Below are positions 1 through 4,714 of a stretch of 4,714 nucleotides of DNA, one piece after another. Every line of letters starts with the position of its first letter. Position 1 is the first letter of the stretch. The stretch spans positions 1-4,714 of IMG/VR virus record IMGVR_UViG_2778261569_000015; one strand, written 5' to 3'. This stretch comes from a virus. Its lineage: Duplodnaviria > Heunggongvirae > Uroviricota > Caudoviricetes. A program made the position numbers and the translations under genes. Below the pieces are notes generated by a model that had not been told where the DNA came from, searched no databases, and was given only the letters and a program-made list of their open reading frames with translations.

Positions 1-38
1 TGACGGACTTCGGGGGAAAAACGAGTATTTTTAGTCAT
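1..38 (-). CDS. IS3-family transposase OrfA, N-terminal 12 codons only (gene runs off the window)
   Basis: ATG at 38-36 on the minus strand, preceded by GAGGT with 7-nt spacing. Translation is MTKNTRFSPEVR, the N-terminus I recall for IS629/IS1203-type OrfA. Confidence 0.7.
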   Translation of the reverse strand, partial: MTKNTRFSPEVR

Positions 39-92
39 CCTGTTTACCTCTTTCTCAGGGAGTTTAGTCTCCAGGATTTCCGGGGCGGTTCA
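1..92 (-). mobile_element. Left end of an IS3-family insertion sequence (IS629/IS1203-like), continuing beyond the window edge
   Basis: The minus strand from 92 downward reads TGAACCGCCCCGGAAATCCTGGAGACTAAACTCCCTGAGAAAGAGGTAAACAGG-ATG. This is a TG-initiated terminal inverted repeat followed by SD GAGGT and the orfA start, and it matches my recollection of the IS629-group left end. The family call is from memory, not a search. Confidence 0.75.
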
Positions 93-1738
93 CTCCTCTG
101 ACCGCAGGCGGTGCAGATCTTTTCCGGTTCCTGTTGCACTACTGGTTCAGGTTGTTTCGTTTCTGGCTCGTTTTGTTGCGTATTTGGGCTGTTCTGTTCC
201 GCTTTCTGGTCGTTCTGTTCCGTTTCTGGCTGATTCTGGTACACAGAATCGCGGGTCTGGATCCCCTTAATCCATTTCGGATCATTCGGGTCGCTAATCC
301 CTTCAACAAATTCTCCGCGAGAGGCAGCCAGTAATTTGTCTGCATCGACAGGATTTTGGGGCGGAATGTTTTTCCGGGCTTCATGGAGTTCTGCCCGCAG
401 TTTCTGATATTTCGCATCAACAGAATTTATCTGTGGCTGAGCATCCATCGACTGCGTGTCCTGATTATGTTCAGTTGTATCCGGTTCCACTGCTTCAGTC
501 GTTGCCTGTTCATCTGCCATTGCGCCAGATGGCTGCGGTTTTTCTTCATCATCCTGTTTTCCTTCTTTTGTTACACGCTGCGGCATTGGAGCAGAGGAGC
601 GACCGCAGGCAATATCCACGATTTCTGGATCAGGGTTGGCATGGTCGGTTTCGGTCAGTACTTTGTTCAGATATTCGGTAACACGGTGGGGAGTAGCCTC
701 GATACCAATTGGTGCTTCTTTCACGGATGCAACCACTATCGCGCGGGAATAATCCAGGTGACCAGGCATGGCGATGAATTTGTCACGAAAAACAGAAAAG
801 GGCGGCTTATTCTCTGAAACGATTTCTTCAATGCGTTTGGCGTGTGCCGGATGTGGATTGTAAATATCGATGTCCATTGAACGGGCCAGAACGCCAGCGG
901 CAACGTCACGTTCCACTGACGCATCATCGTGGACAAAACCTTCACCGCGATCGGTAAGAATTCCTCCGCCAGCATTAGCGCCGGATGGCGTGCGGCTGAT
1001 GCGTAAAACACGATTTCCTTTCATCCACTCTTTTGTCAGCAGACCTCGATCGGTATAGTCAGCGTCCAGGTATGCTTCGAAAAAAGCAGTCATTAACCCC
1101 AGACTGGAATTAACGGGATTAGGGAAAACTTTGTCTGTGTCGCGTACCAGTTTGTGAAGGTCGCGAATCTCCAGCGGGTCGAGCAGCTTTGTGTTGTGGG
1201 AAATAGCCAGGGCAGTAACAGCAGGCAGTTCTTCAGCTCGTGCGATATGTAATGCCTGAAGTTCTTCCCGTGAAACGTGCGTTACCGGTTTTTCGCTGCC
1301 ATGTTGCGCAAGCCAGCGAATGGGCAGTTCCTGACCGGAAATCGGCAGGAGCATATTATCCTCAATCTCAGCCATGTCTTCGCCATTGACGTTGGTATTG
1401 TCAGTGCTGGCTGGTTTGTCCTGAACTGAGGGGGAAGGCGCTATAAATATCATTGTGATGCCATCTTCTCCGCCTTTTTCATAGCGGTTGCAGAATTCAG
1501 TATCGAACACACCTTCAGGCGGCAGGTCATTAACAATGGGCAAATTCACGCGAACAGGTTTTTTGAAATCCTCTTCGTCAAATCCAGCATCGTCCATTGC
1601 GACAACACCCCGTGATATTGCAACCGATAATTTTTTTGCTGTGCGCCAGTAAAAACCGCCTTTAATCCCAAGGCGTTTTCTGACTTTGTCATTTTTGGCT
1701 TCGTAATACAGTGCAATTTCTTCTTTATCAGTGCTCAT
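44..1738 (-). CDS. Prophage protein of unknown function (564 codons as read), 3' end interrupted by the IS; occupies the position of ydfE in Qin-type prophages
   Basis: Long ORF with SD GAGGT 6 nt upstream of ATG 1738 and about 50% G+C by eye. The last 15 codons ([15 protein letters not shown]) are encoded by the IS terminal repeat (92-47), so the native C-terminus is lost. The native C-terminal ~110 residues are Q/E/P/T/N-rich low complexity. No Walker A or other catalytic motif recognised. Confidence 0.8.
134..250 (-). repeat. Degenerate tandem repeats (~21 bp units such as GTTCTGTTCCG(C)TTTCTGG) inside the 564-codon gene
   Basis: Visible near-repeats at 192-212 and 213-233 with further degenerate copies at 150-190. 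They encode the Q/E/P-rich tail ([32 protein letters not shown]). Confidence 0.6.
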
Positions 1739-1830
1739 TGATAAACCTCATAACTATTTTAAGGTTGTACGAATCCCTGCTATTGCTGGCATGCTTAATC
1801 AACGGGTATGGCGTTAATACGGCTGGCGGG

Positions 1831-2019
1831 TTATCCAGCCGGTATTTCGTTATTCAGGTACAGCGATACTTTGTTTAACGGGAGACATTCACCGGAAATT
1901 TTTTGCTCGTCTCTTGCCTGATGGCAGGATTCTTTACTGGCATAAATTCCGGTAATCACATTCTGTGGCTCACCTGTTATAAGAAAAACCGTCATCATCA
2001 GTGCAAACGCTGAACTCAC
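1831..2019 (-). CDS. ydfD: YdfD-like small lysis protein (62 aa)
   Basis: GTG start at 2019-2017 overlaps the dicB stop (GTGA). The product MSSAFALMMTVFLITGEPQ...EQKISGECLPLNKV...EIPAG resembles my recollection of E. coli Qin YdfD in length, hydrophobic N-terminus and EIPAG end, and it sits in the same position immediately after dicB. Confidence 0.6.
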   Translation of the reverse strand: MSSAFALMMTVFLITGEPQNVITGIYASKESCHQARDEQKISGECLPLNKVSLYLNNEIPAG

Positions 2020-2204
2020 TGCTGCCCTCCGAAAATGCCAAGTTCAAGAAGGGCAATTCTGGAGAGTATGGAATTATCATTGAGAAGATAAGGCTCATAT
2101 TTTCTCATCCTGATGGCGTCTTCAGTAAACTCCCGGTTACTGAGCAGAATACCAATATTAAAACACCCTTCAGACGTATTAACGTTTGGTAGTGACGTTT
2201 CCAT
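2016..2204 (-). CDS. dicB: DicB-family cell division inhibitor (62 aa)
   Basis: Internal start of the 97-aa track ORF: ATG at 2204-2202 with SD GAGGA 7 nt upstream (TTGTTGAGGACGCGATA-ATG). The N-terminal half METSLPNVNTSEGCFNIGILLSNREFTEDAI closely matches recalled K-12 DicB (METLLPNVNTSEGCFEIGVTISNPVFTEDAI); the C-terminal half is divergent. Confidence 0.85.
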   Translation of the reverse strand: METSLPNVNTSEGCFNIGILLSNREFTEDAIRMRKYEPYLLNDNSILSRIALLELGIFGGQQ

Positions 2205-2373
2205 TATCGCGTCCTCAACAATGAATTTTGTGATGCGGTGCCTGGTGCCTCCAGGTGACGTTAACCAGTTAACAATTAACGCCGGATACAGAGAATCCAC
2301 CCATAACACTGTTTTTGGTTTTAACTGTTCCGCGTGCGCTGAGCCGCATTCACCGCATCACAAAATTCACTTT

Positions 2374-2431
2374 AAAAAGGGCGGCAGAGCAGCCACGGAG
2401 TAAAACTGATACCGCCAAACGTCACCAGAAA
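2374..2431 (-). ncRNA. dicF: DicF small regulatory RNA
   Basis: Minus strand reads TTTCTGGTGACGTTTGGCGGTATCAGTTTTACTCCGTGGCTGCTCTGCCGCCCTTTTT, nearly identical to the recalled E. coli DicF sequence, including the 3' GC-rich stem and U-run. It lies between the upstream ORFs and dicB as in Qin. Confidence 0.8.
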
Positions 2432-2767
2432 ACTGATAACAGAGGGCGTTGCAGTGGGGTTGTCACTTAAGCGTATGGTCAACCTGACAACCCGGCGTCC
2501 TCAAGGGGGAACAGAATAACCCCGCCACACTTACCGCCGCGCCATTTCGCGGATTGCCACAACCGGAAGCGCACGGTCGAACTAAATTTAACGACACCGT
2601 ACAGAGAGACCAATTTCGCCGTGCGCTTTCGTGTTATGCCCTGACTTTTCAGGGAAAGAGCCTTTCAGTAAACTGTCAGTACCGGATTCTTATCCGTGTC
2701 CGGCGCACGACCACACGTGACAGCGTGTTGGTCTCCATTTTTAACCCAGCCCTTAATGGAGGATAAA

Positions 2768-3073
2768 ATGCACTCTAAATCAATCAATCGATATTATGTC
2801 CATGTGCAGTTATTTGAAGCAACAATGGAACAGGAGAAAAAGTTCGAGACTCTGATGCCAAATTTTAAATACTCCAGGATGATTAATGAAGGTGACATTG
2901 AATATAAATTATTGCCAGGGGCATACGTTATTCAGTCAACGCTTAATGCGAATCAAATACTTGAACAAACCTTTTCTATTGCTAATTCAGTTGGTGCTAA
3001 TGCTCACATTTTTGTTTGCCCTTATGATGAAAGTGCAACCCTTTTGCCTTGTGCTGATTTTAGCACTTACTAA
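2768..3073 (+). CDS. Hypothetical protein (101 aa), low-GC gene antisense to the operon
   Basis: ATG at 2768 preceded by a strong SD GGAGG (2758-2762, 5-nt spacing). The track ORF 2696-3073 is trimmed to this start. A sampled stretch is about one-third G+C, against roughly half in flanking genes. The 3' end overlaps the convergent ORF 3060-3365 by 14 bp. No recognisable motif or TM segment. Confidence 0.6.
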   Translation: MHSKSINRYYVHVQLFEATMEQEKKFETLMPNFKYSRMINEGDIEYKLLPGAYVIQSTLNANQILEQTFSIANSVGANAHIFVCPYDESATLLPCADFSTY

Positions 3074-3365
3074 CTAAATTTAATTTATGTTCAAGTTCGG
3101 CTATTTGCATACGTAGTGCTTTAACCATTGTTTCATGATAAATCTCACTCACTCCACCTGGGTGTGGGGTGAATTTAGGTGAATCATCTTTGTTTTCAGA
3201 ACTCAGATTCTCTTCGTACAGCTTAATAAAGGAATTACGCACATTATGGGATATATTGTCGATGGTTTCTTTTTCTACGGTACTCAGGTCAAGAGTCGCC
3301 AGTTGGGAACGAACTATATTCGCTGCCATTTCCTGGAATTGCATTGGTAAATCTTTAAATTCCAT
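3060..3365 (-). CDS. Hypothetical protein (101 aa) in the pL-like operon, AT-rich, C-terminal predicted helix
   Basis: Preferred start is ATG 3365-3363 with SD GAGGT 5 nt upstream; the track start at 3377 lacks an SD. It follows the ydfA-like gene with an 11-nt gap. Product begins MEFKDLPMQFQEMAANIVRSQ. Whether it corresponds to ydfB/ydfC of Qin cannot be judged from memory. Confidence 0.6.
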   Translation of the reverse strand: MEFKDLPMQFQEMAANIVRSQLATLDLSTVEKETIDNISHNVRNSFIKLYEENLSSENKDDSPKFTPHPGGVSEIYHETMVKALRMQIAELEHKLNLVSKC

Positions 3366-3376
3366 CGTCAACCTCA

Positions 3377-3529
3377 TCAGTCAGTGTTTCTGGCTAACCA
3401 GCGACGCGCGCCAGCTTCAGTTTTAAACGTTTTGCTTCTGGTATACGTCATCGCGGTAAACGTGCCGTCCAGGTTGGGGAATACTCCGTATACCAGAGAT
3501 TCGTTGTTGCCAAGATTGAGCGTATCCAT
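3377..3529 (-). CDS. ydfA: YdfA-like small protein (DUF1391-type, 50 aa)
   Basis: Internal start of the 82-aa track ORF: ATG 3529-3527 with SD GAGGT 4 nt upstream. Product MDTLNLGNNESLVYGVFPNLDGTFTAMTYTRSKTFKTEAGARRWLARNTD matches my recollection of Qin YdfA and is the first gene after the repressor, as in Qin. Confidence 0.65.
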   Translation of the reverse strand: MDTLNLGNNESLVYGVFPNLDGTFTAMTYTRSKTFKTEAGARRWLARNTD

Positions 3530-3600
3530 GTTGACCTCATTTGCCCTTAACGCCGGGGGGGCGGAACTAAGACCTGTCGCACCGTTGTGCTTTGATGGGA

Positions 3601-3640
3601 TATATTGTTCTCTTAAGATGAACATATGTCAACATTGTGA
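3601..3640 (-). promoter_or_regulatory. pL-like promoter with operator palindrome, driving the ydfA-dicF-dicB operon
   Basis: Minus strand has TTGACA (3632-3627), a 17-nt spacer, then AACAAT (3609-3604). An inverted repeat TGTTC-N9-GAACA (3606-3624) overlaps the spacer and -10. The segment is about 80% identical to the pR-like element at 4126-4165 in inverted orientation. Confidence 0.5.
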
Positions 3641-3653
3641 ATGCGCAAGAGGC

Positions 3654-3675
3654 AAAAAAAACCGCCTTCCGGCGG
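3654..3675 (-). terminator. Rho-independent terminator of the repressor gene (bidirectional in form)
   Basis: Hairpin CCGCC-TTCC-GGCGG (3662-3675). On the minus strand it is followed by an 8-nt U-run (complement of A-run 3654-3661), 22 nt downstream of the repressor stop. The plus strand has a T-rich tract after the stem (tattgttttgt). Confidence 0.7.
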
Positions 3676-3697
3676 TATTGTTTTGTAAAATAAAGAA

Positions 3698-4087
3698 TTA
3701 TTTTTGTCGCGTTATTGGGTCAACGTATTCTGAGTAAAATTCGGTCAGTTTTTGAAGGCGCATTTGAAAAGCTGCCAGCATATTTCTACGCTCTACAGGT
3801 GGCAGGTTTCTGTAAACATCAAGCAGGGCTTTCTCATCATCATCAAGCGCCTCTCTGTTTGTATCTTCTTTTCCTGTCAGTAGCCAGGAAAGGGAAACAT
3901 TTGTCGCTTCTGCAATTTTGGCTGCGGAATCTTTACTGATTGTCCCTCTTTTTTTCCAGGCGTTGACTGATGAGCGTCCTACACCAGCGATGCGCGCTAA
4001 ATCTGAACCGCTTAAATGATGCTGTTGCGAGATCGTATCTAACCTTTCTGCCAGCGGGGTGTCGTATTGCTTTTTTCTCATGTCCAT
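3698..4087 (-). CDS. cI/DicA-like phage repressor, XRE-family HTH (129 aa)
   Basis: HTH segment LSGSDLARIAGVGRSSVNAWKK near the N-terminus, with a C-terminal helical region (ALLDVYRNLPPVERRNMLAAFQMRLQKL) arranged like DicA. Divergent from a Cro-like gene and followed by its own terminator. No SD; a -10 hexamer abuts the ATG. Confidence 0.85.
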   Translation of the reverse strand: MDMRKKQYDTPLAERLDTISQQHHLSGSDLARIAGVGRSSVNAWKKRGTISKDSAAKIAEATNVSLSWLLTGKEDTNREALDDDEKALLDVYRNLPPVERRNMLAAFQMRLQKLTEFYSEYVDPITRQK

Positions 4088-4189
4088 TTAGCAATTATAA
4101 CCGTTCAGTGAACACTAACAATTCCTCGTAGTGTTGACTTATGTTCTCTTTAAGTGAACAATGTTGTGGCTGATTGAATTGGAGGTTGT
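4088..4189. promoter_or_regulatory. Divergent immunity promoter/operator region (pRM-like leftward, pR-like rightward)
   Basis: Minus-strand TATAAT at 4099-4094 ends 6 nt before the repressor ATG. Plus-strand TTGACT (4134-4139), 17-nt spacer, AACAAT (4157-4162). Operator-like palindromes TGTTC-N9-GAACA (4142-4160) and GTTCagtGAAC (4103-4113). SD GGAGG 4181-4185. Confidence 0.6.
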
Positions 4190-4465
4190 ATGACAGCATT
4201 GGACAAGGCAATAAAGATTGCTGGTGGTATTCGTCCGCTAGGGCGTGCAATAGGGGCTTGGCCGTCTCAAATACACAAATGGGCAAATGAATACAATGGT
4301 CGAGTGCCGACAGGGGAGCGGGTTCGTCAAATTTATATTGCAACTGGGGTGACTCCTCATGAATTGCGACCAGATTTATATCCGAATCCAACCGACGGGT
4401 TGCCTGCTGGAGATAAGGCTAACACACAAAATACACCGGAGTTGATTCATGAAAATCAAGCATGA
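4190..4465 (+). CDS. Cro-like HTH regulator (DicC/YdaS family, 91 aa)
   Basis: SD GGAGG 4 nt upstream of ATG 4190. N-terminal AIKIAGGIRPLGRAIGAWPSQIHKW and ...GVTPHELRPDLY fit the Cro/YdaS pattern. It is divergent from the repressor. Confidence 0.8.
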   Translation: MTALDKAIKIAGGIRPLGRAIGAWPSQIHKWANEYNGRVPTGERVRQIYIATGVTPHELRPDLYPNPTDGLPAGDKANTQNTPELIHENQA

Positions 4466-4714
4466 ACACATCCGCATGGCGATGAATGCCTGGGCGCGTC
4501 CTGATGGCGAAAAAGTTCCAGCAGCTGGAATAACCCAGGCTTATTTTGAGTTGGGTATGACGTTTCCTGAACTGTATGACGACAGCCATCCGGAAGCCCT
4601 GGCTCGCAATACCCAGAAAATTTTCCGCTGGGTAGAGAAAGACACCCCTGATGCTGTTGAAAAAATGCAGGCTCTGTTACCGGCGATCGAAAAGGCGATG
4701 CCGCCTTTGCTGGT
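4449..4714 (+). CDS. YdaT-like protein in the cII position, N-terminal 88 codons (no stop within window)
   Basis: ATG 4449 with GGAG 7 nt upstream; overlaps the cro-like gene's last 17 nt. Translation MKIKHEHIRMAMNAWARPDGEKVPAAGITQAYFELGMTFPELYDDSHPEALARNTQKIFRWVEKDTPDAVEKMQALLPAIEKAMPPLL. The MKIKHEHI start and position downstream of cro resemble the Rac YdaT family as I recall it. Confidence 0.65.
   Translation, partial: MKIKHEHIRMAMNAWARPDGEKVPAAGITQAYFELGMTFPELYDDSHPEALARNTQKIFRWVEKDTPDAVEKMQALLPAIEKAMPPLL

Follow-up and report, generated by a model that had tools for sequence, protein, structure and literature searches.

The stretch analyzed here, referred to as the window, comprises 4,714 nucleotides of a Caudoviricetes record (IMGVR_UViG_2778261569_000015, positions 1 to 4,714) and carries at its left end an open reading frame (ORF) of 564 codons on the minus strand (44..1738). 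This locus raises the question of whether the frame is a prophage gene with its native 3' end or a gene cut short by an insertion sequence (IS), and, in the latter case, whether the IS marks a simple insertion or the edge of a deletion. A preliminary description, made from the sequence alone, had favored truncation by an IS3-family element and proposed that the site may belong to a recurrent hotspot.

The window is identical, base for base, to the complete draft contig NJZZ01000085.1 of 4,714 bp (assembly GCA_002462085.1); locus L003 of the comparison is its reverse complement. Window positions 91-4714 are matched with 100% identity by a prophage of strain E32511 (E. coli O157:H7; L002), and nine further genomes, mostly labelled O157:H7, show 99.8-99.9% identity over the same part. 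On the minus strand, the genes are arranged as in an early-left operon of the Qin/lambdoid type. A YdaS-like gene on the plus strand (4190-4465) is divergent from the gene of a CI-type repressor (3698-4087, minus), and a DUF1391 gene lies between the repressor gene and two ORFs of unknown function. The leftward operon contains the small RNA DicF (2379-2430, minus; Rfam RF00039, 75 bits compared with a gathering score of 48), dicB (2016..2204, minus; Pfam PF05358, E=7e-34), and, in the same operon as dicB, a ydfD-like DUF1482 gene (1831..2019, minus; Pfam PF07358), which is the upstream neighbor of the 564-codon ORF.

Some features of the remaining window are of separate interest. The spacer between dicF and dicB (2172-2381, minus) contains a sub-threshold match to STnc100, with 37 bits compared with the required 47. 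The two ORFs of unknown function are convergent frames of 101 codons each (2768-3073, plus, and 3060-3365, minus), overlapping by 14 nt and forming a cassette of ∼0.7 kb; neither shows a match in Pfam or PADLOC. The cassette is found in the E32511 prophage (L002 8678-9275) and is missing from the paralogous prophage in L001 as well as from many genomes that cover just 83% of the window. The right end of the contig (4449-4714, plus) falls within a YdaT-like gene and presumably represents another prophage-repeat boundary common to paralogous prophages. If so, both contig ends are breaks of the assembly and not of biological origin.

The IS end and the chimeric reading frame

Read on the minus strand, window positions 92-1 match the first 92 nt of a complete IS of 1,310 bp in strain NZRM4169 (L001) with 92/92 identity; this copy is annotated as 'IS3-like element IS1203 family transposase'. 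Positions 1..92 (minus) constitute the left end of an IS629/IS1203-type element of the IS3 family, cut by the contig end, with the terminus TG at 92-91. This agrees with the preliminary description, which had the IS repeat beginning at position 92 within the reading frame. The second IS copy of NZRM4169 shows one mismatch to the window over the 92 nt. Along their full length, the two copies (L001 3506-4815 and 6544-7853) differ at 64 of 1,310 positions (∼5%), which indicates that two subtypes of the IS629/IS1203 group coexist in that strain. IS629 is described as a 1.31-kb member of the IS51 subgroup of the IS3 family and as the commonest IS in O157:H7 (PMC10758439).

The left terminal inverted repeat (IRL, ∼25 bp) occupies 68..92 (minus) and agrees at 22 of 25 positions with the right end of the L001 copy; the right end of the IS reads ...CTCTCCAGGAAACCCGGGGCGGTTCA. 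The IRL shows the family-typical terminal organization, 5'-TG...CA-3' with imperfect repeats of ∼25 bp; the right end lies outside the window. The ATG of orfA, IS position 55, corresponds to window positions 38-36, and the window includes 12 codons of orfA (MTKNTRFSPEVR) and 2 further nucleotides (1..38, minus), with a translation that agrees with the full L001 copy. A GAGG sequence, read as the Shine-Dalgarno sequence of orfA, is located at 47..50 (minus) with the spacing GAGG-N8-ATG. In elements of this type, orfA precedes orfB and the two are expressed by means of a programmed -1 frameshift; the identical full-length copies in L001 and L005 carry annotations for such a frameshift and for an AL1L pseudoknot.

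Upstream of the IS terminus, the ORF is identical to the intact gene of E32511 over nucleotides 1-1648, equivalent to 549 amino acids and reaching down to window position 91. The retained 5' part of the exonuclease gene, the RecE-like N-terminal region, is placed at 93..1738 (minus) with 100% nucleotide identity to L002. The dinucleotide TG at 91-92 (minus strand) is common to the IS terminus and the intact gene, leaving the junction ambiguous by 2 nt. Beyond it, the interrupted frame runs 46 nt into the left end of the IS, where residues 550-564 are encoded by 15 IS codons and followed by a TAA at 46-44, just ahead of orfA. The chimeric, 3'-truncated allele of the preliminary description, with its 549 exonuclease codons and 15 IS-encoded codons, is thereby recovered. 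A chance match is excluded, as the homology breaks exactly at the terminal nucleotide of the IS and the ORF matches NCBIfam NF007259 with E=2e-297. The stop codon had also been described as overlapping the Shine-Dalgarno sequence of orfA; the TAA is located there but abuts the GAGG at 50-47 without overlap, 5 nt upstream of the ATG. A stop codon precedes orfA in all three frames entering the IS end. Folding of the junction and IS leader RNA gave a stability no greater than that of shuffled sequence (z=0.02), so that nothing points to a structure that would occlude the ribosome-binding site of orfA in read-through transcripts.

The intact protein comprises 814 residues, so that the truncated allele lacks the last 265, the extent of the missing C terminus for which an alignment to intact homologues had been suggested. 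In the conserved motif CTACGQRS-GGNCPDCG (the hyphen marks the junction), the cut separates one CxxC pair from the other. The continuation of the gene is GAG-TGGCGGCAACTGCCCTGATTG, also given as GAG-TGGCGGCAACTGCCCTGATTGTGG.

Identity of the interrupted gene

The intact allele is the prophage "exonuclease" WP_000102179.1 of E32511, encoded by a gene of 2,445 nt (L002 5204-7648) and followed in that strain by excisionase and integrase genes beside an ompW fragment. Its protein contains two domains, Exonuc_VIII (Pfam PF06630, residues 56-189) and a DEDDh Rv2179c-like 3'-5' exonuclease domain (PF16473, residues 633-804, E=8e-66). In the 564-residue product, PF06630 is retained at residues 56-189 (E=4.5e-34), which is the N-terminal feature expected of RecE. 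PF16473 is absent, the whole domain lying in the part removed by the IS. Among solved structures, the sequence of the intact protein matches just one, and weakly: an 'exodeoxyribonuclease' (8kel) aligned to residues 634-767 with E=1e-5. A PADLOC scan of the truncated protein, together with the two neighboring ORFs, gave no match.

Comparison with RecE of the K-12 Rac prophage (exodeoxyribonuclease VIII) shows a close relationship restricted to the N-terminal part. K-12 RecE residues 50-593 align with residues 58-618 of the intact protein at 69% identity, a region that includes both the PF06630 domain and the CxxC...CxxC motif split here by the IS. The similarity stops near residue 618 of the intact protein. 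The C terminus of RecE is a PD-(D/E)XK 5'-3' nuclease, as also annotated in L005, whereas that of the intact form described here is a DEDDh 3'-5' exonuclease. In addition, the recT gene found downstream of recE is absent for the intact form, which has xis in this position. The equivalog model for exodeoxyribonuclease VIII (NF007259) scores the ORF with 989 bits, below its cutoff of 1,269, and the match spans only profile positions 1-534 of 877. An orthologue of RecE is ruled out by the sub-cutoff score, the PF16473 C terminus, and the downstream xis in place of recT. Judged by its domain composition, the gene is a modular relative of recE in which a RecE-like N-terminal region is combined with a DEDDh nuclease instead of the PD-(D/E)XK nuclease.

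Four loci of the exonuclease slot were compared (L002 5204-7648, L005 1882-5867, L007 3787-6387, and L004 6079-6999). The RecE-like N-terminal region of ∼560 amino acids occurs with a PD-(D/E)XK nuclease and recT in Rac-type prophages, and the same region occurs with a DEDDh Rv2179c-like nuclease in Qin-type O157 prophages. In K-12 YdfE, which belongs to the DEDDh-type family (phrog_2082), the N-terminal module is of a third, unrelated kind. At the level of sequence, the exonuclease slot of these prophages is modular.

Origin of the junction

The window is very probably explained by insertion of an IS629/IS1203-type element (IS3 family, 1,310 bp) into the prophage exonuclease gene with truncation of its product, an assignment drawn from the identity of both sides of the junction. 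The IS would have transposed into codon 549/550 of the 814-codon gene, within a Qin/lambdoid-type prophage of an O157:H7-like E. coli strain. The leftward early operon to which the gene belongs comprises DicF, dicB, the DUF1482 gene, and the exonuclease gene, with xis and int following in intact relatives, and the IS has the orientation of the gene. Of the protein, the RecE-like N-terminal 549 residues are retained, and the loss of the whole DEDDh domain suggests a null allele with respect to nuclease activity. The insertion is probably neutral, as the target is a dispensable, multicopy prophage gene. Since the IS points in the direction of the operon and lies upstream of the position of xis and int in relatives, it may be polar on these two genes. 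The end of the sequence within the IS is most likely due to short-read assembly, which would have interrupted the contig at a repeat.

The exact junction is found in none of 5,426 complete E. coli genomes. In the same set, F3113 is the only genome with coverage of at least 80% of window positions 1-220, and its IS occupies a different site, in a true recE gene. The chimeric protein is recorded on two contigs in the protein collection, and its 15-residue tail appears in 1 of 248 related proteins retrieved, namely, the query itself. P0124, the second 564-residue member of the protein cluster, was considered as a further instance of the same insertion and rejected, because it is the incomplete copy of another allele at a contig end. 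The sequence beyond the IS was sought with nine guessed 3'-remnant proteins, built from internal ATG or GTG starts and from edge-partial forms carrying the 92-nt right end of the IS (in two variants) and a 3-bp duplication. As exact sequences, all nine are absent from the protein collection, from which short contigs may be dropped and in which cluster members are hidden. A homology search with a predicted protein in which the right end of the IS runs into the gene gave no match covering the IS-derived part together with this gene; it did match the same IS end joined to unrelated flanks (P0245 and P0248). Draft E. coli assemblies contain very many contigs of 250-800 bp that are pieces of the exonuclease gene alone (proteins P0138-P0248), which indicates that the gene is a collapsed multicopy repeat in such assemblies. 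Database proteins of this family labelled 'partial' mostly reflect contig ends and not truncation.

Three alternatives to a plain insertion have to be weighed. The reading of the 564-residue protein as a natural full-length form, with a coincidental likeness of the last 92 nt to an IS, has nothing in its favor beyond the open frame itself and is refuted by the 92/92 identity to the IS end, by an 814-residue allele that is identical up to the junction, and by homologues, including K-12 RecE, that read through the site as ...GQTGGDNCPDCG.... Intact homologues end otherwise, and the native C terminus against which the preliminary description had asked for a comparison fails on this account as well as on the confinement of the tail to the query. 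An assembly chimera of an IS end and an intact gene is hardly more credible: the contig does end in a repeat with just 92 nt of the IS present, but the break falls exactly at the terminal nucleotide of the IS, for which the random odds are ∼1 in 1,310, and the same chimeric protein occurs on two contigs. At a true repeat boundary, a de Bruijn graph assembler would in any case be expected to run on into the repeat for a fixed length.

The third alternative, proposed in the preliminary description, regards the IS as a deletion or rearrangement boundary. The 3' part of the gene, and possibly xis and int, would have been lost after the insertion through IS-IS recombination or an IS-mediated adjacent deletion. 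The prophage would then be locked or eroded by the loss of these genes. This reading is a real possibility, if a doubtful one. Matching duplications are present at only 21 of 47 IS629 sites in four published O157:H7 genomes (PMC3271280), Qin of K-12 is eroded in this way, as an IS2 fragment separates its pseudogenes ydfE and intQ, and the failure to find guessed 3' remnants or IS-right-end fusions speaks weakly against a plain insertion. However, the 3' part is a collapsed repeat, and a partner contig of very small size may have been discarded or be hidden in a protein cluster; nothing within the window bears on a deletion. Each of three complete IS copies located within related genes or next to them is a simple insertion with a duplication of 3 bp, ATG+CTG in L001, CAA in L005, and CGA in L006. 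Those in the related exonuclease genes (L001 copy B and L005) involve the same IS in the same orientation. IS629 is known to generate duplications of 3-4 bp (PMC3271280; PMC10758439). From these relatives, the GAG at window positions 93..95 (gene orientation) is predicted to be a 3-bp target-site duplication, its partner lying at the other IS end outside the window. On balance, simple insertion accompanied by a 3-bp duplication is the favored origin, somewhat likelier than an adjacent deletion.

The IS is oriented with the leftward operon and the host ORF ends 5 nt before the ATG of orfA, an arrangement through which orfA could conceivably be driven by prophage induction via read-through transcription and termination-reinitiation translation. 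Separately, the RecE-like N-terminal fragment might still be functional despite its missing nuclease. Both ideas are very unlikely. If the coupling existed, transposition of IS629 or IS-mediated deletion would be linked to the SOS response and prophage induction.

The event is real but ordinary, as this kind of insertion is thoroughly known and only the exact site is rare. IS629 insertion sites serve as epidemiological markers in O157:H7, and the rarity of this one means that it could mark a small clade and serve as a possible typing marker. Beyond strain typing, the insertion is of little importance. The case also illustrates that a decaying gene fused to an IS can yield an artefactual ORF where a draft contig stops, and the end of such a frame should not be taken as the native end of a protein. 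A mildly useful by-product of the comparison is the modularity of the exonuclease slot, in which one RecE-like N-terminal region is found with a PD-(D/E)XK nuclease in some prophages and with a DEDDh nuclease in others.

Comparison with IS insertions in related exonuclease genes

The analogy with K-12 ydfE drawn in the preliminary description applies to the position of the gene and not to its sequence. Qin of K-12 shows the order dicF, dicB, ydfD, ydfE (pseudogene), IS2E fragment, and intQ (pseudogene). In this order, ydfE occupies the same slot as the present ORF, and its annotated 3' end overlaps IS2E, at which it is truncated. The interrupting element is an IS2 fragment there, in contrast to the IS629 type here. 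YdfE (306 residues) was rejected as a homologue of the retained part, as the best BLASTP match between the two has E=9.7, equivalent to no similarity. A PHROG scan assigns YdfE to positions 1-257 of phrog_2082 ('exonuclease', 823 positions) and the intact form of the present gene to positions 439-823. The matches to different parts of one family explain how the two genes share a slot without similarity, as mosaic relatives with distinct N-terminal modules.

Two further insertions show the same IS type in related genes. In the paralogous gene of NZRM4169, an IS629/IS1203 element is inserted in gene orientation near codon 369, with both sides present and a 3-bp duplication. In the true recE gene of the Rac-type prophage of F3113 (O157:H7), an IS1203 element is found in gene orientation at approximately codon 592, again with both sides present and a 3-bp duplication. 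In these cases, the gene is split either inside the RecE-like region or past it, ahead of the nuclease domain, at sites that differ from the present one.

Truncation by IS recurs in the exonuclease slot, but neither the site nor the IS type is constant. The proposed hotspot is not established, as the other insertion sites in the family differ, and published work on IS629 reports no sequence-specific hotspot (PMC3271280). Relaxed selection and neutral decay are a simpler reading, since the target is a dispensable, multicopy gene of 2.4-2.6 kb in prophage regions, which hold ∼62% of IS629 copies (PMC3271280; PMC10758439). The closest known counterparts of the element are the IS629/IS1203 copies of O157:H7 prophages, with which it shares an identical left end, inverted repeat, and orfA start, as well as the location in a prophage.
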